A DNA stretch of 64,000 nucleotides from Candidatus Hydrogenedentota bacterium (GCA_045863295.1 BTWA01000001.1:1-64000); one strand, 5' to 3'; shown: positions 5,237 to 50,939, counted from the stretch's first letter. The notes: generated from the sequence alone by a model not told the origin. A program made the numbers and translations.

Positions 5237-5326
<90 letters not shown>

Positions 5327-41708: not shown

Positions 41709-42007
41709 CGGCCAACCACGGATTTCACGAACAAAACTTAATGTCTCGGGGCCAAATTCCCGGAACACTCAGACGTGGCTGCAAACCGTCGCTTGTGCGT
41801 CACGCACCCTTTGGAATTGGCGAGCGTTGCATTCCAAACGTATTTGCCAATCCTCATAGAATGGAATGTCCCATTCGTGGAATTCGTGTTAACTCGGGGC
41901 TGAATTGTACCGCGTAAACTTGCTATACTCCCTCCGATTTTGTCCCCCTGGGGTACTCGATTCGCACTAAATACGCGGCTTTCCACGCCGTGACAAGGGG
42001 CTTTGCC

Positions 42008-43900
42008 ATGAGTTTTCCCATTCCAGTGAACGATTATGAGCCGCTGGTACTCGACCCGTCCCAACCGGCGCTGACGCCGGACCAGTTGGCCCACCTGCAA
42101 GGAAACGTGCAGCTCGTCCGCGACGTCATCATCTTCTACACCGCGATTGCCGGCATCAAAGGGCTCGCCGGCCACACCGGCGGCGCCTACAGCATCGTAC
42201 CGGAAGTGCTGATCGCCGATGCCTTCATGCGCGGAAGCGACAAGGTCTACCCCGCATTCTTCGACGAAGCAGGCCACCGCGTCGCGATTCAGTACGCCAT
42301 GGCGGCCTTCAACGGCCACATGCCCTTTGAAAAACTCTACCACTACCGCGAATACGGCCACGGCCTCTTTGGCCACCCGGAGTTGGAACCGGAAGAAGGC
42401 ATCATGTTCAGCTCTGGACGTCTCGGCCACCTGTGGCCGTTTGTCAATGGCGTGGCGTTGGCCCACCCCGGCAAAACCGTCTTCCTGTTCGGCAGCGACG
42501 GATCTCAAATGGAAGGCGACGACGCGGAAGCGGCCCGGCTTGCCGTAGCGCAGAAGCTGAATGTGAAACTCTGCATCGACGACAACAACGTGACCATTTC
42601 CGGTCATCCCAAGGATTATCTGCCGGGATACGACATCGGCAAGACACTCGCCGGCCACGGCCTCACCGTGGACGCGCACGACGCCGAAGATCTGGCCGCG
42701 CTTTACCAACGCATGCAAAAAGCAATGGCGACCGACGGGCCCGTCGCGCTGATTAACAAGCGCGTCATGGCGCCCGGCGTGCCCGGCATCGAAAACAACC
42801 ATGCTGGCCACGACGTGATCAAGAAAGACCACGCGGTCGCCTACCTCACCGCTCGAGGCCATACAGCGGCCGTGGACTATCTGAACAACGTCAAGGTGGA
42901 GAAGACGTCACAAACCTACCTGGGATCGTCCAAGGAAACTGCAGGCAACCGCGTGGAATTCGGCACCTACGTAAACGAAATCCTCGCGAAGATGACTCCC
43001 GAAGAGCGCAAGAGCAGCGTGATCGTCATTGACTCCGACCTCGAAGGCTCCACCGGGCTCAAAGCCATTCGCACCGCGCACCCCGATGTATGCATCAACG
43101 GCGGCGTGCAGGAACGCGGCAACTTCAGCGCGGCGGCGGGCTTCGGCTTTACGCCCGGCAAACAAGGCATCTTCAGCACCTTCTCGGCTTTCCTCGAAAT
43201 GATCGTGTCCGAGGCCACCATGGCGCGGTTGAACAAAGCCACTGCCATTTGCCACTTCTCCCATGCCGGCGTGGATGAAATCGCGGACAACACCTGCCAC
43301 TTTGGCATCAACGTATTCTTCGCCGATGCAGGTCTGGAAGACGACGACACAAAACTCTACTTCCCCGGCGATGCACTACAACTGAAAGCCCTGCTGTACA
43401 AAATCTGGAACGACCGTGGGCTTCGCTACGTGTTCACGAACCGCTCGAAGATTCCGTTTATCCTCAACGAAGACGGATCGAAATTCTACGACGGCAATTA
43501 CACATTTACTCCCGGGAAAGACGAGATCATTCGCAAAGGCACGGCGGGCTACGTCGTGTCCTATGGCGAATTGCTGTACCGGGCATTGGACGCCGTCGAG
43601 CAGGCGCGCAAAGCCGGCATCGACGTCGGCCTTATCAACAAACCGACCCTGAACGTGGTGGACGAAGAGACCACGGCCATCGCGGGCAAATCCCCGTTTG
43701 TACTCGTTGTTGAAGGACAGAATCTCAAGACCGGCCTCGGCGCGCGCTACGGCACATGGCTCATCGAACGCGGTCTCACGCCCAAGTTCGCGCGCATGGG
43801 CGTTACCAAACCCGGCTGCGGCGGTATCGAAGAACAAGTCCCCTTCCAGGGACTCGCGCCGTATGACATTCTCGAAAAGATCAAAGCGATGGGCGCGTAA
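42008..43900 (+). CDS. Single-chain transketolase-like ThDP enzyme
   Basis: GHTGGA, LFGHPE, SGRLGH, variant ThDP motif SDG...DDNN, GVQE, STFSAF, SHAG. Confidence 0.85.
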   Translation: MSFPIPVNDYEPLVLDPSQPALTPDQLAHLQGNVQLVRDVIIFYTAIAGIKGLAGHTGGAYSIVPEVLIADAFMRGSDKVYPAFFDEAGHRVAIQYAMAAFNGHMPFEKLYHYREYGHGLFGHPELEPEEGIMFSSGRLGHLWPFVNGVALAHPGKTVFLFGSDGSQMEGDDAEAARLAVAQKLNVKLCIDDNNVTISGHPKDYLPGYDIGKTLAGHGLTVDAHDAEDLAALYQRMQKAMATDGPVALINKRVMAPGVPGIENNHAGHDVIKKDHAVAYLTARGHTAAVDYLNNVKVEKTSQTYLGSSKETAGNRVEFGTYVNEILAKMTPEERKSSVIVIDSDLEGSTGLKAIRTAHPDVCINGGVQERGNFSAAAGFGFTPGKQGIFSTFSAFLEMIVSEATMARLNKATAICHFSHAGVDEIADNTCHFGINVFFADAGLEDDDTKLYFPGDALQLKALLYKIWNDRGLRYVFTNRSKIPFILNEDGSKFYDGNYTFTPGKDEIIRKGTAGYVVSYGELLYRALDAVEQARKAGIDVGLINKPTLNVVDEETTAIAGKSPFVLVVEGQNLKTGLGARYGTWLIERGLTPKFARMGVTKPGCGGIEEQVPFQGLAPYDILEKIKAMGA

Positions 43901-43958
43901 GTCAACGCGAGAGCCGTATAGCAAGTATACGAGTGAGACACTTTCACCGTCACGTACG

Positions 43959-43988
43959 TCCCCTCCCGACAGGGAGGGGATTTTTTTT
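43959..43988 (+). terminator. Rho-independent terminator
   Basis: TCCCCTCCC-GACA-GGGAGGGGA followed by T8. Confidence 0.9.
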
Positions 43989-44056
43989 GGTAAGGCCGTT
44001 TTGACGACCCCATCTCGCTGAACAGATAAATCGAAGCCGGTTGTGGCCTTGCCTCA

Positions 44057-44222
44057 CGAGCATGCCATTGCGCCCGACCGGGAGGTTTCCCTGTTCTTGC
44101 CGCTTTCGTCCGATGCAAAGAGGAGGTCGCACATTGCCCCATACTGTCCTCTTCATTGTCGCCACGGCGGGCTTCGAAACCGCAAGCGAGCTTGCTTGGG
44201 TAAGGCGGCAGCAAGCTACCGC
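44057..44222 (+). repeat. 166-bp direct repeat, left copy
   Basis: CGAGCATGCCATTGCG...CAAGCTACCGC; about 7 mismatches to 49851-50016 by manual alignment. Confidence 0.95.
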
Positions 44223-44692
44223 GGTCCAAAAAAAGCGCAGACTTGATGTGAGGATTGCCGCGTTGGCTTGATTCCATTCTGGTTGACTTCGCATCCTTTT
44301 TTGGCCGTTCCCTACCTTTATGTCCCGCTTGTTGCAGTTTGCAGGAGGATGTACCGAGTGGATTGGCTCGGTACGTCGGATTCAAACGAGGGGTTACAAA
44401 AATGTACACCGGCAATAACGTAAGCATTGACAATGAGTTTGGGTGTTGCTCCACGGTTGCGAGTCTGATCTTATCCGATCTTTGAGGGACTCGATTTGCG
44501 TACGCTCTAACGTTGGAAACAAAAGAAGCACATCGGTTAAACCGACTTGCGGGAAGAAATCGTACGTCAAGGCATCGGACAATTGGGGCTGCAGTAAGCT
44601 GGAATACCGATGAGAGCAAATTGATTGCAGGTTTAGACCTACGACAAAATCTACGTATACTACCTGGCTAGGCAAAAGGGGCAACTCCACAG

Positions 44693-47600
44693 ATGCAGTT
44701 TCTGAAGAATGGACCAGACGTTCCTGATCGACTGCTTCAAGATCACGAAGAAGGAAGAGTCGTCTTTTTCTGTGGTGCTGGAATTTCCTACCCGGCCGGA
44801 CTGCGAGGATTTAATTGGCTTGTTGACGAAGTGTATGGCCATTTCAACATCGTGCCCAACTCAGTTCAGGAGGCCGCAAGAAAATCGGGTAGATTCGATA
44901 TGGCAATTGGCTTATTGGAGTCGGAAGTACCTGGGGGCAGGTTAGCGGTACGGGAGGCTATCAGAAATTTCCTATTGCCAAAGTCGCTTAATCGGAAAGC
45001 CACTGAGACTCACCAAGCGCTGCTCACTTTGAGCAAGAACCGCGGCGGTGAATATCGGTTGATCACTACGAATTTCGACCGACTCTTCGAGGAATCAGCT
45101 TCACGGGATGGCCTAGAATTCGAGCGATTCGCGGCTCCAATGTTACCTATACCCAAACAAAAAAGAATCAACGGCCTAGTTTACCTTCACGGTTTGTTAC
45201 CAGCGACATCAGACACAAATGCGCTACAAAGACTGGTCATTTCGAGTGGAGATTTTGGGCTTGCGTACTTAACTGAACGTTGGGCCGCCCGGTTTGTTGG
45301 CGAGATTTTTCGTAATTTCACCGTTTGTTTTGTGGGATACAGCATAAATGATCCAGTACTTCGCTATATGATGGATGCTCTGGCCGCGGACAAGCTATTA
45401 GGCGAGGCGTCGCCTGAATTTTTCGCATTCGGCGAATATAAGATAGGTCACAGAGAAAAGGCGGAAAGCGAGTGGAAAGCGAAGAATGTTACCCCAATTC
45501 TCTATAAGTTGAATAAGGCACACTCGCTACTTCACAAAACGTTAAGCGAGTGGGCGCGTACGTATCGAGACGGGGTTCAGGGCAAGGAAAGAATTGTCTC
45601 ACAATATGCGTTGGCGATGCCGACATCCAGTACGGAGCAGGACGACTTTGTGGGGAGGATGTTGTGGGCAATAAGCGACCTGAGCGGCTCTCCTGCCAAG
45701 CATTTTGCCGAGTTTAAGCCTGCCCCGCCTCTGGATTGGCTTGAGTACTTCTATTTCAAGAGATATAGGCATGCTGATTTAATTAGATTTGGAGTTCGGC
45801 CTAATAATGACGTGGATGACAAATTAACCTTTAGCGTTGCGGAAAGACCTTGTCCATATGCTCTAGCGCCGTGGATGCGATTGCTAGGATCTGGCACTTC
45901 CGGCGCAAGTTGGGACAATATCCAACAAAACTTGGCGCGATGGCTTTCAAGGCATCTGGGAGACCCTCGATTGATTCTGTGGCTCACCAAGTATGGTGGC
46001 CACATACATCAAGAACTGGCGCGCACAATTCAGGCGGAACTTTCCAGGATTCAGAGGCTTCAGCAGAACGCGAACAGCGCTTCACTCCAGCAAATCTTGG
46101 ACGCATCTCCAAACGGAGTACCTGATGACCGTTTGTACTCAATTTGGAGAATGGTCTTGGACGGCCAAACAGCAGCCAACGGCAATCAGTTTGGTCTCTA
46201 CGATTGGTTTGGAAAATTGGCGCACAGTGGTTTGACTGCCAGCCTCCGTGTAGAGCTACGGAGGCTTCTGGCGCCGCGCGTGATGTTCAGGGCCGCATTT
46301 CATGTACCTGACAACAGTAACGCAACTCAAGGGAGGCCAGAAAAGGAAGAAATTGAATGGGACCTAGTACTGGCAACGAGACATGTTCATTCCACAATCA
46401 GTGACCATGGGAACGATGCGGCTTGGCTCAAAGTTATAGGTAACATTTATCCGGATATTTTTCCGCTACTACGAGACGCACTGGACTTGATGCGTGATCT
46501 TGGGGGGGCCGACGACAAATTCGACAGATCCTATATCGACCACCCTTCAATACCGAATCACCCTCAGAACCACAATTTTCATGATTGGACGGTATTGATA
46601 GTTCTTCTCCGAGACTCTTGGTGCGCCATTGCAAAGCAAGACATTGTACGAGCACGACGTTATGCCGAGGACTGGTTTGAAATGCCTTATCCACTATTTA
46701 AGCGACTCGCATTTTTTGCAGCGAGAAGCGAGAATGTAATTGAGAAAGAACAGGCTGTCGCGTGGATACTTTCTGACAACGGTTGGTGGCTCTGGTCAAC
46801 AGCTACTCAAAGAGAGGTTATTCGCTTACTGGCTTGGATTGGCGTCAGGCTTGAGCGGTCGGAATTGAAAAATCTGGAAAATGCGATATTGGCTGGACCC
46901 CCGAGGGAAATGTTCAAAGACGACCTTTCCGTTGAGGATTGGAATAGAATAATTGATAGGATAATTTGGCTGCGGTTAGCGAAGTTGGTAGACGCAGGAA
47001 CTCAACTTGGAACTGAAGCATTAGCCAAGTATAGAGAAATATCTGAAAGAAGATCTGAGTGGAGAATAGCTGAGGATGAACGTGACGAGTTTCCCTTTTG
47101 GCTAGGTGACGGTGATGACGGGCGAAGCTACACAGCTACTCCAATTCATCGACGAGAACTTGTGGAATGGCTAAAGCTAAATCAAACCGAAGACCATTGG
47201 GATGAAGACAATTGGCAAGAAAGGTGCAGACGAGAGTTCGGCACGACATTCTGTGCTCTCTATTCACTCTCTTGCGAAAGCCTTTGGATTGTTGATCGTT
47301 GGCGGCAGGCCATTAATGCTTGGTCAGAAGAGAGTCTGGCTTACCGGCGTTGGAGATGGGTTGGCCCCGTGCTGTGGAACGCTCCAGACGATATCCTGAT
47401 TTCGCTATCACCCGGTCTTAGTAGGTGGTTGAATCTTGTCGCAAAGAAAGGTGAGGGCGCGTCGGTTCCCTTGCTGGCCTTTTTAGCCAGAATGCTGCAT
47501 TTAGATTACGAAGAGAAAGGCGTACACAAAGATTACGTTACCCACGCCTTGAACCATCCACTCGGAAGGACAGTAGACGCGGTCATCAAGATGTGGTACC

Positions 47601-48481
47601 GCCAGGGGTTGCAAGATGACCAGTCCTTGACAAGTCCGTACCGCGAATGGTTCACAGAGATATGTGATACAAGCAACATTGCTTTTCGCAATGGCCGCGT
47701 ACATTTAGCCGTTCACACAATGACGCTTTTCCGAGTCGACGAGGATTGGTGTAAGAGCCGCTTCTTGCCTTTGTTTGACTGGAACGTAAACGAATTGGAG
47801 GCTACCGCTGTTTGGCAGGGGTTTCTTTGGTCTCCACGCATTCATCACCCATTACTGGAGGCATTTAAGCAGTCGTTCTTGGCATGTTCTCATCATTACA
47901 CGGAACTCGGAGACTTTGGTAGTCAATACGCAAGATTCCTTACCTATGTTGCCCTTGATTCGGCGGATGTGTTCTCAGAAGGCGATCTGCGTCTAGCATT
48001 TCGAGCTTTGCCGCCGCACGCAATTGCCATAGTTGCCGATACATTAGCGGAATCGCTTAAGAGTGCTGGTCCGCAAAAAGAACAACATTGGTCCAATCGA
48101 GTGTCGCCGTTCTTGAAGTCGGTTTGGCCGCAGGGAAACGAATACGCTACGAAGGACATCGTGGAGAGTTTAGCCGAACTCTGTATCGTAAGTGGTAAAA
48201 GTTTCCCCGAGGCTTTTGACCAGTTAAGGCACTGGCTGAAACCAATCAAGAATCTTCATGTTATCTGCGTGCTGCTCGTCAAGTCAGAATTGTGCAGTCG
48301 CCATCCTGCGGAGGCGTTGCAATTCTTGGCAAAGATTGTGGATCTAGAGGCTGACTGGCCACCTCAAGAGCTTGAGCAATGCCTCAATGAAATCGTGTCC
48401 GCGTCGCCAGAACTTCTTGATGCGCCCTCAGTTCGGCAAATTAGAGAGTATCTTCACCGGATGCGTGGCAGGCTCGCATAG
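44693..48481 (+). CDS. dsr1: Anti-phage defence-associated sirtuin, Dsr1-type (SIR2 NADase plus long helical C-terminus)
   Basis: MQF..NGPD.P..LLQ.HEEGRVVFFCGAGIS, TTNFD, YLHG, SSGDFGLAYLTERWAARFV, FVGYSINDP; 1262 aa; visibly lower GC. Confidence 0.88.
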   Translation: MQFLKNGPDVPDRLLQDHEEGRVVFFCGAGISYPAGLRGFNWLVDEVYGHFNIVPNSVQEAARKSGRFDMAIGLLESEVPGGRLAVREAIRNFLLPKSLNRKATETHQALLTLSKNRGGEYRLITTNFDRLFEESASRDGLEFERFAAPMLPIPKQKRINGLVYLHGLLPATSDTNALQRLVISSGDFGLAYLTERWAARFVGEIFRNFTVCFVGYSINDPVLRYMMDALAADKLLGEASPEFFAFGEYKIGHREKAESEWKAKNVTPILYKLNKAHSLLHKTLSEWARTYRDGVQGKERIVSQYALAMPTSSTEQDDFVGRMLWAISDLSGSPAKHFAEFKPAPPLDWLEYFYFKRYRHADLIRFGVRPNNDVDDKLTFSVAERPCPYALAPWMRLLGSGTSGASWDNIQQNLARWLSRHLGDPRLILWLTKYGGHIHQELARTIQAELSRIQRLQQNANSASLQQILDASPNGVPDDRLYSIWRMVLDGQTAANGNQFGLYDWFGKLAHSGLTASLRVELRRLLAPRVMFRAAFHVPDNSNATQGRPEKEEIEWDLVLATRHVHSTISDHGNDAAWLKVIGNIYPDIFPLLRDALDLMRDLGGADDKFDRSYIDHPSIPNHPQNHNFHDWTVLIVLLRDSWCAIAKQDIVRARRYAEDWFEMPYPLFKRLAFFAARSENVIEKEQAVAWILSDNGWWLWSTATQREVIRLLAWIGVRLERSELKNLENAILAGPPREMFKDDLSVEDWNRIIDRIIWLRLAKLVDAGTQLGTEALAKYREISERRSEWRIAEDERDEFPFWLGDGDDGRSYTATPIHRRELVEWLKLNQTEDHWDEDNWQERCRREFGTTFCALYSLSCESLWIVDRWRQAINAWSEESLAYRRWRWVGPVLWNAPDDILISLSPGLSRWLNLVAKKGEGASVPLLAFLARMLHLDYEEKGVHKDYVTHALNHPLGRTVDAVIKMWYRQGLQDDQSLTSPYREWFTEICDTSNIAFRNGRVHLAVHTMTLFRVDEDWCKSRFLPLFDWNVNELEATAVWQGFLWSPRIHHPLLEAFKQSFLACSHHYTELGDFGSQYARFLTYVALDSADVFSEGDLRLAFRALPPHAIAIVADTLAESLKSAGPQKEQHWSNRVSPFLKSVWPQGNEYATKDIVESLAELCIVSGKSFPEAFDQLRHWLKPIKNLHVICVLLVKSELCSRHPAEALQFLAKIVDLEADWPPQELEQCLNEIVSASPELLDAPSVRQIREYLHRMRGRLA

Positions 48482-48557
48482 AGACTGACAGCGCACTATC
48501 CGCTAGCTGTTTTCACCTTTCCCATTGTGCAATTCCCGCCTATCACTTGCCTTTCGT

Positions 48558-48602
48558 CCAAAGCGGTGTCGCCGCTTGTCAGCTTTGCCACCGCACTCCA
48601 TA
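48558..48602. repeat. REP-like palindrome downstream of dsr1
   Basis: CCAAAGCGGTGTC...TGCCACCGCACTCCA hairpin; same GCGG..CCGC..TCCA frame as the 3' end of the 166-bp repeats. Confidence 0.55.
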
Positions 48603-48732
48603 CCAGTGGCTGGCTTCCGTGGTGGTTGGTTTCGCTTGGGTGCCGCTATTGGGCTGATGTGGGAGGAGTGGTGTGTCGCCTCATGTGCCTTCAGTGCAAC
48701 ACGCCGGGCTTGTTAATAGGAGGATAATTCCT

Positions 48733-49743
48733 ATGCCTAGCAAGCCGGAGTCGGCGTTTGATGTTTTGAAGGGGGCTTATTTGGCGGTGGAGCCGCATGT
48801 GAAGGCGCATTTGGATGCGGTGTGTGAGGCGCGGGGGAAGGAGTCTGTGCGGGTGACGCCGTTGGGTTCGCCTTGTTCGCGGGCATGGGATGACGAGTGG
48901 GTTGCGGTGGTGGAGGCGAAGGAGGCGGAACTGGCGCGGCGGATCTGCGGGGCGCGGTCGGTGTCGGGTGGGCCGTGCGAGTTGTCGCCTGACCATGCGA
49001 ATGGGCGTTGCCGGTTTCATGGCGGGTTTGATTTGTCGGGGGGGCAGCGGGGGAACCGGAATGCGGTGGTGCATGGGTTGTATGCGCGGCGGTTGATGGT
49101 ATGCGGGCCGCAGTGCGGGATGTGGGGGTCGTGTCCGGTGGCGTGTCCGGAAATCGAGGCAATGGCTCCGAAGGATCGGCCGGTGTGTCCGTTTGAGTTG
49201 GCGGAGTATAACGCGGCGTTGACGGATGGGTTGGCGGTTGCGGATGGCCGGGATATGACGAGTCCGTTGCATCAGCAGACGGCGCATGCGCTGGCGTTGC
49301 TGCAGGTGATGATGTCGCGGGCGATGGCTACGATGTCGCGGAACGGGTTGTCGCCTTTTTCGGGTGAACAGGGGGAGCAGGCAAACAACGCGATGCGTGC
49401 GTTGATGCGGATTTTTTGGGAGTACCGTCAGTTGCGGGGTTTGTTTCCGCCGTTGGGGGAGGACGAGGCGCCTAGCGAGACGAGCGCGGTGCAGCAGGCG
49501 ATGCGGATGGCGGTGGATACGGATTTGACGCCGGAAGGGCAGGGGGATTTGCAGTTTCCGGCGAATCCGCGCGCGGTGTTGCGGACGGGATTTATCAACC
49601 TGGATCCTGGGGCGGCGCTTCGCGGGCCGCGGCCGGATATGCAGGCAGTGATGCCGCGCTGGTCAAAGCAGCGGAAGGTGGAGGCTGAGAACGTGGACGA
49701 GGACGAGGCCGAGCGCGAGGAAGAGGAATTTGACCACGAATGA
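48733..49743 (+). CDS. HGGxSTG-like domain protein with extra Cys cluster
   Basis: CGARSVSGGPC...NGRCRFHGG...GNRNAVVHGLY, then CGPQC...CPVAC...CPFE; AGGAGG RBS. Confidence 0.7.
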   Translation: MPSKPESAFDVLKGAYLAVEPHVKAHLDAVCEARGKESVRVTPLGSPCSRAWDDEWVAVVEAKEAELARRICGARSVSGGPCELSPDHANGRCRFHGGFDLSGGQRGNRNAVVHGLYARRLMVCGPQCGMWGSCPVACPEIEAMAPKDRPVCPFELAEYNAALTDGLAVADGRDMTSPLHQQTAHALALLQVMMSRAMATMSRNGLSPFSGEQGEQANNAMRALMRIFWEYRQLRGLFPPLGEDEAPSETSAVQQAMRMAVDTDLTPEGQGDLQFPANPRAVLRTGFINLDPGAALRGPRPDMQAVMPRWSKQRKVEAENVDEDEAEREEEEFDHE

Positions 49744-49850
49744 GCACGAATGGTCCAACCCGGATATTTCACGACGTTGTCCCATTTATTGTGTACCAAC
49801 AGATCCATAGAACTATTGTCGAATGCGATGTGTTGGTTGTTGCGGGGCCG

Positions 49851-50016
49851 CGAGCATGCCATTGCGCCCGACTGGGAGGTTTCCCTGTTCTTGCCGCTTT
49901 CGTCCGATGCAAAGAGGAGGTCGCACATTGCCCCATACGGTCTTCTTCATTGTCGCCACGGCGGGCTTCGAAACCGCAATCGAGCTTGCTTGGCTAGGGC
50001 GGCAACAAGCTACCGC
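49851..50016 (+). repeat. 166-bp direct repeat, right copy
   Basis: Near-identical to 44057-44222; ends 11 bp from the xerD stop. Confidence 0.95.
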
Positions 50017-50027
50017 AGGCCAGAGAA

Positions 50028-50939
50028 TTATCCCCTCGGATGAAACGCTTTGTGGGCTTTGCTCAATCGATCCGTGCTGACGTGCGTGTAGATTTGCGTG
50101 GTGGCAATGTCGGCGTGGCCGAGCATTTCCTGCACGGCGCGCAAGTCGGCGCCGTTGTCGACGAGGTGCGTGGCGAACGAATGCCGCAGTGTGTGCGGCG
50201 TGACATTGCCGCGGACGTTCGCCTGTCGCGCGTAGCGTTTGACTACGCGCCATGCGCTCGTGCGGCCCATTGGCCCTTTGCGTTTCATGGAAAGAAAGAC
50301 CGTGTCGGCGCGCGTATCCATCTTCGTGCGTTGGCGGATCCAGGCGTTCAATGCTTTTACCGCCTCTTCTCCCAACGGCACGATGCGCGTCTTGGAGCCT
50401 TTTCCCGTGACGCGAACCGAACTCTCTTCCACCGATACATCGCGCAGGCGCAACGTGATGAGTTCGCTGATGCGGAGTCCGCACGAATAAAACAGTTCCA
50501 GCATTGCCGCATCGCGAACGCCTTCGGGAGTCGATCGATCCGGTGCGGCGATCATGCGATCCACTTCGCGGGTCGTCATGACATCGGGCAGGCCTTTCGT
50601 GATGCGCGGCGACTCGAACCCTTCGGTGGGGTCGCCTTTGGCGAGTCCCTCGTCGCGGACAAAGCGGTGAAACCGCCGGATAGCGCTCAAGTGCCGCATG
50701 GCCGAACGCGCGGACAAGCCCTCCTTACGCAGTGCGATGAGATGATCCAGCAAACGTTCGCGGGTTACCTGTCCGAGGTCGGTCACTCCGGCTTCGGCCA
50801 AGTGATTGAGATAGCGCTGTAAGTCGGCGGCATATGCGGCGAGTGTTTTTTCGGCCAGACCGGATTCGAAGACGGCGGCCTGCATAAACCGATCGAGGTA
50901 CGGCCCGAACGGGCTGGTGTTTTGGACATCCTTATCCAT
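50028..50939 (-). CDS. xerD: Site-specific tyrosine recombinase XerD
   Basis: TLAAYAADL, RDAAMLELFYSCGLRISEL, GKGSKTR, HTLRHSFATHL..GADLRAVQEMLGHADIATTQIYTHV. Confidence 0.9.
   Translation of the reverse strand: MDKDVQNTSPFGPYLDRFMQAAVFESGLAEKTLAAYAADLQRYLNHLAEAGVTDLGQVTRERLLDHLIALRKEGLSARSAMRHLSAIRRFHRFVRDEGLAKGDPTEGFESPRITKGLPDVMTTREVDRMIAAPDRSTPEGVRDAAMLELFYSCGLRISELITLRLRDVSVEESSVRVTGKGSKTRIVPLGEEAVKALNAWIRQRTKMDTRADTVFLSMKRKGPMGRTSAWRVVKRYARQANVRGNVTPHTLRHSFATHLVDNGADLRAVQEMLGHADIATTQIYTHVSTDRLSKAHKAFHPRG

Follow-up and report, generated by a model that had tools for sequence, protein, structure and literature searches.

Foreign and anti-phage cargo upstream of terminase-like HGGxSTG genes in Hydrogenedentota, and the possible origin of a repeat-bracketed Dsr1 islet

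The window analysed here is a stretch of 64,000 nucleotides (nt) from a Candidatus Hydrogenedentota bacterium (GCA_045863295.1, BTWA01000001.1:1-64000), and its positions 44035-50027 form a single-copy chromosomal islet without a recombinase. Within the islet, dsr1, a defence-associated sirtuin gene, stands upstream of an HGGxSTG zinc-ribbon gene (hereafter HGG gene), and both lie between two copies of a long direct repeat, R. A preliminary description of this DNA had proposed that R acts as a landing pad for defence cargo. Comparison of HGG loci places the recurrent landing pad elsewhere, on the 5' side of the HGG gene and not at R, which was found only here; a comparable bracketing repeat was sought at 33 other HGG loci, where only background was seen, while three more had flanks that were too short. 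Because a long bracketing repeat occurs only at the window locus, cargo docking is associated with the 5' flank of that gene. The tentatively preferred reading of the islet, to which slightly less than an even chance is given, is that Dsr1 cargo docked 5' of a native terminase-like gene and that the R pair is a homology-driven scar, followed by deletion. As first noted, this is a small, familiar-looking defence islet, and no support was obtained for the role that had been assigned to R.

Foreign and defence genes upstream of HGGxSTG genes

The source genome (G000) comprises 6.3 Mb; its contigs are given C numbers and HGG loci are given L numbers. From roughly 60 HGG loci found, 37 (about 60%) were sampled in 12 related genomes including G000, and these were picked by flank length before any composition was viewed. 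The 37 loci have no flanking gene in common. The 2.3 kb upstream of the HGG gene lies at least 0.04 below its locus in guanine-plus-cytosine (GC) content at 16 of the 37 loci (43%), against 1 of 32 for the 2.3 kb downstream (Fisher p=1.4e-4), and upstream GC is lower than downstream GC at 25 of 32 loci (Wilcoxon p=2e-4). As a control, the upstream measure was applied to 1718 long open reading frames (ORFs), all from G000, and gave 1.6%. Defence content, scored over the two nearest ORFs of at least 100 amino acids (aa) on each side, is likewise one-sided: a specific defence or toxin gene is present upstream at 8 of 37 loci and downstream at none of 33 (p=0.006).

The upstream defence and toxin genes are Dsr1 in the window, BstA (1.7e-111), HamA (7.6e-126), ThsA (2.8e-172) together with a ThsB TIR gene, a TIR protein (PDC-S66), a PDC-M68A/ABC-3C CTD10 protein, RES and BrnT. 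In relatives, the following lie directly upstream of an HGG gene:

L162, 5847-7812: Thoeris (ThsA and ThsB)
L149, 5220-6074: Hachiman HamA
L145, 4477-5721: BstA
L164, 6456-7502: TIR protein
L155, 10058-10996: ABC-3C-type protein

The remaining upstream content is generic (radical SAM, methyltransferase, helix-turn-helix and GHKL ATPase genes), and an FRG/PDC-S15 gene and a dCTP-deaminase-like gene are found one gene further upstream. Downstream genes encode transporters, glycosidases, CTP synthase, Mur ligase and similar proteins, and the only PADLOC matches on that side are generic: a protein kinase, an ABC ATPase and two methyltransferases. Several low-GC neighbours at the HGG loci of relatives match no family; these may be unknown defence genes.

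The window islet is composed as follows, its left and right core neighbours included:

41990-43900, + strand: transketolase-like thiamine pyrophosphate (TPP) enzyme gene with Pfam domains Transketolase_N, Transket_pyr and Transketolase_C; left core neighbour
43958-43990, + strand: intrinsic terminator of that gene, a 10-pair G+C-rich stem (43958-43981) followed by a T run
44035-44233: left copy of R, with a well-conserved core at 44057-44228
44172-44228: double-palindrome hairpin like that of repetitive extragenic palindromic (REP) elements, the 3' third of R
44234-44692, + strand: low-GC leader of the foreign cassette, GC 0.48 directly after the left repeat
44693-48481, + strand: dsr1, defence-associated sirtuin, with NF041818 and PADLOC matches and a SIR2_2 domain
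48558-48602: short dispersed repeat between dsr1 and the HGG gene, with 6 other copies at 83-88% identity
48733-49743, + strand: HGGxSTG zinc-ribbon gene, over the NF041373 cut-off, with an N-terminal motif like that of the phage small terminase subunit (TerS)
49757-49830: the 5' ~75 nt of a ~130-nt miniature inverted-repeat transposable element (MITE), stopping at 49830
49831-50027: right copy of R, core 49851-50022, abutting the xerD stop codon
50028-50939, - strand: xerD, a tyrosine recombinase gene (TIGR02225), right core neighbour, outside the islet

The dsr1 ORF encodes 1262 aa and scores 1705.2 bits on NF041818 (cut-off 1400), with residues 1-1254 aligned to model positions 1-1262; its PADLOC Dsr1 score is 1496 bits, and SIR2_2 (PF13289) is matched N-terminally at residues 123-269 (E=2.5e-20). 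By these profile matches the gene is a full-length Dsr1, with a predicted anti-phage role. It is present in one copy in G000, and among 133 genomes of the order a Dsr1 exceeds the cut-off in only one, one further genome carrying a Dsr1 split over two contig ends. Among 3858 homologues the closest reach 50-52% identity, and those that bear a name are mostly proteobacterial; no close Dsr1 locus was found among genome contigs. GC is 0.47-0.51 from about 44250 to about 48500, against 0.55-0.63 in the flanks and 0.61-0.65 over the HGG stretch, and the low-GC DNA sets in directly where the left repeat ends and stops just behind dsr1. To judge from distribution and composition, dsr1 is horizontally acquired and foreign to the lineage, because it is sporadic in the order (1 of 133), its homologues are only about 52% identical and its GC is low.

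The HGG gene has the opposite character. Its 336-aa product scores 31.9 bits on NF041373 (cut-off 29), its GC is 0.64, and paralogues are present in G000 on contigs C26, C10 and C20 (46-55% identical) and, more distantly, on C23; the four closer copies form one clade in a quick IQ-TREE run (99% in the Shimodaira-Hasegawa-like approximate likelihood ratio test, SH-aLRT). Relatives of its product were found in 18 of the 54 genomes of the family, which cover 10 of 31 genera, and a genome can have as many as six copies; database homologues are all unnamed or hypothetical, the organism, where named, being Hydrogenedentes. On this phylogenetic evidence the HGG gene is lineage-native and multi-copy. 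A literature search for the name 'HGGxSTG' found no paper.

A third component is the MITE, which belongs to a family of about 130 nt with inverted ends (GGATATTTCACG ... CGTGAAATATCC) and 45 BLAST hits in G000, the window copy included. Full copies run on into a second inverted terminal repeat. The window copy lacks this and stops at 49830, exactly where similarity to the left repeat region begins; this truncation at the onset of repeat homology therefore marks an extra rearrangement. The islet is thus a mosaic of a foreign dsr1, a lineage-native HGG gene and a truncated MITE, and is not one cassette, so that at least three events must be accounted for: dsr1 arrived, the MITE was inserted, and the DNA underwent a break or deletion at 49830. 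The preliminary description had taken the interval for a cassette inserted through the repeat, or able to excise and amplify by it; foreign origin holds for dsr1 and fails for the native HGG paralogue and the MITE remnant. Its account of the contents agrees with the present data: a lower-GC Dsr1 gene and an HGGxSTG gene, both over their profile cut-offs, lie between the repeats, and no recombinase or transposase domain was detected by Pfam in the two islet genes or in 10 small ORFs from the interval and its surroundings.

The flanking genes, to a distance of 8 kb on either side, are metabolic or transport genes. The left neighbour is labelled transketolase-like because it falls far under the NCBIfam transketolase cut-offs (214 bits against 575) despite its Pfam domains; it has DNA matches of 68-73% in relatives. 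The leader of the foreign DNA contains a promoter-like TTTAGA-18-TATACT at 44632-44661, and the small ORFs of the leader (44234-44692) gave no Pfam match.

Terminase likeness and strand skew of the HGGxSTG family

The Cys/His-rich core of the HGG proteins (W..W, CGAR, PC, GRC, HGG, GNRNA..HGLY and further Cys pairs) carries the motif found at the N-terminus of phage small terminases. The motif is present at 35 viral loci, and in all seven viral loci examined the motif ORF matches TerS PHROGs and the next ORF matches the large terminase subunit (TerL). This raises the idea that the HGG gene is the TerS of a minimal phage satellite with R as its ends, so that Dsr1 would be spread through packaging of the islet by a helper phage. 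Known satellites do carry defence cargo, as described in PMC10803314, and the nearest ESM Atlas clusters of the HGG protein include viral and terminase clusters, which serves as a lead only. However, the window protein matches the TerS family phrog_9231 weakly and over some 40 residues (residues 83-120, E=6.1e-5), and the rest of its AlphaFold2 model (predicted local distance difference test, pLDDT, 74.6) gave no fold match at E<=0.001 in PDB or BFVD. No terminase domain was found among the two nearest ORFs per side in the 37 HGG loci, as opposed to seven of seven viral loci, and, taking the core genes from the PICMI definition in PMC10803314, no int, alpA, primase or other satellite core gene was found in the islet, in its flanks or in the four ORFs closest to the HGG gene at any of the 37 loci. 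HGG paralogues moreover cluster by genome, and the other loci are without terminal repeats. A satellite is therefore a distinctly improbable identity for the islet.

Where the loci of recent HGG paralogues are compared, DNA homology ends at the ORF boundary or within the ORF. The idea that the HGG gene is part of a larger mobile unit was rejected on this ground; homology confined to the ORF, together with clustering by genome, fits ORF-only copying or gene conversion. The C20 paralogue is bracketed by a 281-nt direct repeat of 93.6% identity (C20:93941-94221 and C20:95285-95565; L039 7942-8222 and 9286-9566). This unit consists of the HGG promoter region and first codons, and its downstream copy is followed by a truncated 5' piece of the gene.

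HGG genes also exhibit an extreme keto/amino strand skew, which is confined, across the 37 loci, to the gene and about 400 nt upstream, with normal flanks. Mean absolute GC skew is 0.26 over the gene and 0.45 at third codon positions, compared with 0.07-0.08 in the flanks. It reaches at least 0.2 in 22 of the 37 genes (19 negative, 3 positive), its sign differs between paralogues, and third-position values reach +/-0.8. The window copy, where the skewed region was placed at 48500-49750, is the strongest positive case (+0.37 over the gene, +0.74 at third positions, with a third-position AT skew of -0.62). GC and AT skews of HGG genes are anticorrelated (r=-0.85); therefore one strand is G+T-rich and the other A+C-rich. 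For scale, the 99th percentile of skew among 1-kb windows of G000 is 0.225, and thirty regions of that genome reach at least 0.28, among them HGG loci and REP-like arrays.

Keto/amino strand asymmetry of this kind resembles that of vertebrate mitochondrial DNA. We infer that the pattern is as expected from deamination of C and A on an often-exposed strand. The asymmetry suggests that one strand is often single-stranded, which could render the site recombinogenic. Another possibility is that the gene spreads through a single-stranded or cDNA intermediate. As a third option, the HGG protein is possibly a packaging-interference defence gene that travels in defence islands. Both the flank pattern and the strand skew of HGG genes are new to us.

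An extreme skew was also observed in a second gene beside cargo. At C23:18797-22115 (L040 8798-12116), three low-GC (0.47) genes, one of them dCTP-deaminase-like, have an HGG-like gene on one side and, on the other, an extreme-skew gene of no known family, a relative of which flanks FRG-domain cargo in L080. A link of this second skewed gene to HGG was rejected, as the two are unrelated.

The direct repeat and the origin of the islet

R is the single long direct pair in the window (44057-44233 and 49851-50027; 177 nt, 94%, spacing 5794). By BLAST the pair spans 172 nt at 94.8% identity (44057-44228 and 49851-50022), and weaker similarity extends about 22 nt leftward, to 44035 and 49831. The repeats reported in the preliminary description (166 bp with about 7 differences) are thus real and slightly longer, with nine mismatches within 44057-44228: three in the first 115 nt and six in the last 57 nt. 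The left copy begins 66 nt past the terminator of the transketolase-like gene, as had been described; the right copy does adjoin the xerD stop codon (50028-50030), at a distance of 0-5 nt instead of the 11 bp given before.

R consists of a 115-nt unique part and a REP-like hairpin of about 57 nt. The full unit is present in only two copies in the whole 6.3-Mb genome, which disposes of the suggestion that R might be a high-copy dispersed element, although its hairpin third is dispersed. The 115-nt part has no other occurrence in G000, and neither this part nor the full unit was found in 40 relatives. A 21-mer search of JGI metagenome contigs for the 115-nt part gave two matches, which were judged to be chance because they have nothing else in common with the window. 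The hairpin has at least 14 further matches in G000, the closest of which are inverted pairs about 100 nt apart, and tandem arrays of 161-166-nt units that contain the hairpin are found on five contigs at 93-95% identity. These arrays are G+T-rich (C29:5300-5900, C61:2200-3000, C59:1-900, C56:1-900 and C37:57200-57800); their left flanks are near-identical on the five contigs, and two arrays lie at contig ends. REP elements and REP doublets forming hairpins (REPINs) are mobilised by REP-associated tyrosine transposases (RAYTs, Y1 family), and G000 has five Y1_Tnp (RAYT-like) matches, one of them 2 kb from a hairpin copy. The hairpin is read as REP-like because it is dispersed, occurs in inverted pairs and tandem arrays, and is accompanied by Y1 genes.

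R, 172-195 nt long depending on where its weaker similarity is cut, is intergenic and contains no duplicated end of a tRNA, transfer-messenger RNA (tmRNA) or protein gene. It holds no tRNA (the sole tRNA of the window is at 5237-5326) and no Rfam family, a search at E<=1 giving one sub-threshold match, on the terminator of the transketolase-like gene. An RNA gene in R was considered and rejected, the folding of its two copies being no better than that of shuffles (z +1.5 and +1.2). Neither pseudo-ends of xerD or of the transketolase-like gene nor homology beyond R was found.

On the tentatively preferred reading, Dsr1 cargo would have docked on the 5' side of the HGG gene, much as foreign and defence genes appear to have done at other copies of the family. 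The R pair would be the scar of a single cross-over insertion of a circular intermediate, or of an unequal or ectopic exchange, and at least one later deletion would have cut the MITE. Today R would serve only RecA-type deletion or tandem amplification of the 5.8-kb unit. No sign of a site-specific system was found: the islet encodes no recombinase domain, and R shows neither a tRNA, an Rfam family, a gene pseudo-end nor a dif-like site. The data show the anatomy, the copy numbers, the foreignness of dsr1 and the one-sidedness of HGG flanks, whereas both the order of events and the recombination mechanism are inferred.

Several points weigh against this reading. The R pair could predate the cargo, as REP-like units of similar size stand in tandem elsewhere at 93-95% identity, and the repeat and the docking site may be unrelated, given that the other 33 HGG loci are without a bracketing repeat. 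Family-level relatives (the set holds no genome of the same genus) show scrambled synteny around both the transketolase-like gene and xerD. No empty site, circular junction or tandem junction was seen in the contigs, which break inside both copies of R, and the contig graph of the probable source run, taken alone, is as compatible with a circle and a separate empty site as with an integrated islet. The flank pattern was derived from roughly 60% of the HGG loci found, in 12 genomes that are related to one another, and its GC control is from G000 only.

A possible though rather unlikely alternative is that the R copies are neighbouring rare units of REP/REPIN type, as an old tandem pair or a local copy, between which foreign DNA accumulated. 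The REP-like hairpin in the 3' third of R, with its 14 other matches and inverted pairs, argues for this, as do the tandem 161-166-nt hairpin units on five contigs, the five Y1_Tnp matches, and the other HGG loci with cargo, which need no bracketing repeat. However, the 115-nt part is absent elsewhere in the genome and in 40 relatives, and yet is the better conserved part of R (three differences); moreover, the start of low-GC DNA at the end of the left copy and the end of the MITE at the start of the right copy would be two unexplained coincidences.

Direct repeats flanking a compositionally foreign segment would also be expected if the R copies were attL and attR of a decayed integrative element that had lost its integrase gene. 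This is improbable: no integrase remnant was detected in the ORFs or small ORFs, R is without a tRNA, a tmRNA or a gene 3' end, and the HGG gene and the MITE are native to the lineage and not imported.

The neighbouring xerD gene had been named, speculatively, as a possible participant. Its product scores 349.6 bits on TIGR02225 (cut-off 329.6), and full-length counterparts, 58-65% identical, are present in four of six relatives inspected, each in a different context; DNA matches to xerD occur in many more relatives than these six, and a second Xer paralogue (38% identical) lies on C7. Xer enzymes act at dif sites and not beside their own genes. The best dif-like match in R has 8 mismatches in 19 to a dif core, whereas C6:33433-33463, the best dif-like sequence of the genome, has a palindromic ATAATATATATTAT core with two mismatches to the same dif core and is a candidate chromosomal dif site. 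Xer-mediated insertion of the type used by integrative mobile elements exploiting Xer (IMEX) or by dif modules would be favoured by the adjacency of xerD alone, 0-5 nt from the right repeat, and its chance is regarded as negligible. By its profile match and counterparts, XerD is the housekeeping orthologue; nothing links it to R, and it appears to be a bystander. The transketolase-like gene and xerD are not neighbours in 40 relatives, and the flanks of both are unconserved even among relatives; the ancestral state is not reconstructable, because neither gene keeps its neighbours at family distance.

Read evidence was taken from the Logan contigs of four runs, of which X1 is the probable source run. 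None of the four gave a joint across the islet. In X1, the contig on the left stops at 44109 and the next after the islet starts at 49950; a contig of 5748 nt covers exactly 44156-49903, and a 106-nt piece (depth 19) common to both R copies links all four arms. Such breaks inside both copies are as expected from a k-mer graph at a repeat with a 65-nt identical stretch. Such a graph would equally be expected if the 5.8-kb unit were a separate circle, or came from elsewhere, and had been misjoined via R. An assembly artefact is nevertheless very improbable because X1 depth is equal over the left flank, islet and right flank (12.8, 12.2 and 12.9), the nine differences in R are phased consistently by the assembly, and no replication gene was found in the 5.8-kb unit (two genes and small ORFs). 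Runs X2 and X6, from two other studies, contain fragments that are 100% identical to parts of dsr1 and the flanks. Run X3, a sludge metagenome from another study, contains a strain that differs from the window by 1-3%, with contigs that cover the side of the transketolase-like gene (43533-44163, into the left repeat) and the HGG gene (49279-49830); dsr1 is almost uncovered there, which at a depth of 3-5 and with contigs only is uninformative on its presence or absence. An X3 contig continues past the MITE truncation point at 49830 for 114 nt that are unlike the window, a hint of strain variation at most.

Meaning of the HGGxSTG locus and comparison with known systems

In this uncultured phylum, a solitary, multi-copy HGG gene predicts foreign and anti-phage genes on its 5' side, with low-GC DNA there at 43% of loci compared with 1.6% of controls. 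It is possible, if doubtful, that the HGGxSTG genes of Hydrogenedentota represent an undescribed kind of docking site, with housekeeping genes 3' and variable, low-GC, often anti-phage cargo 5'; the cargo seen at these loci comprises Dsr1, Thoeris, Hachiman, BstA, TIR, ABC-3C, RES and BrnT. Were this so, the HGG gene would be a practical marker for new defence systems among unannotated low-GC neighbours. It would also point to the building of defence islands without integrases, for which the strand skew would offer a testable mechanistic handle.

The e14 element in icd is an island flanked by direct repeats after Campbell-type integration. The islet resembles it in that direct repeats flank foreign DNA, but differs in having no integrase, an intergenic repeat without a duplicated gene end, and mixed native and foreign content. 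R resembles REP/REPIN elements in its palindromic hairpin of about 57 nt, which occurs at scattered intergenic sites, as inverted pairs and as tandem arrays, in a genome with Y1_Tnp genes; the whole of R, however, including the 115-nt unique part, is present in only two copies and is not a typical amplified REPIN.

With phage TerS (phrog_9231, phrog_1889) the HGG family shares the motif C..G.PC...GRCR.HGG..(S/T)G...GN.NA..HG.Y. The phage proteins are 174-250 aa long and are encoded directly before TerL, whereas the bacterial family spans 316-500 aa, with a predicted helical body that has no fold match.

Defence hotspots have been described at fixed positions of P4/P2 elements and PICMI satellites (PMC10803314; PMC13586616), and the hotspots known in satellites depend, according to PMC10803314, on integrase-bearing elements. 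The HGG loci are alike in that variable defence cargo, differing per locus, occupies a position fixed by one conserved gene. They differ in that no integrase, AlpA, primase, Psu, fis or short att repeats are present, and in that the conserved gene is a solitary TerS-like zinc-ribbon gene, with no other gene in common.

Dsr1 itself is a single-gene, NAD+-depleting anti-phage system (Garb et al., bioRxiv 10.1101/2021.12.14.472415). The window protein is at most 52% identical to any listed homologue and its host is a Hydrogenedentota bacterium; it otherwise corresponds to that system in being full-length and over the equivalog cut-off, in its N-terminal SIR2 domain, in its length of about 1260 aa and in standing alone.

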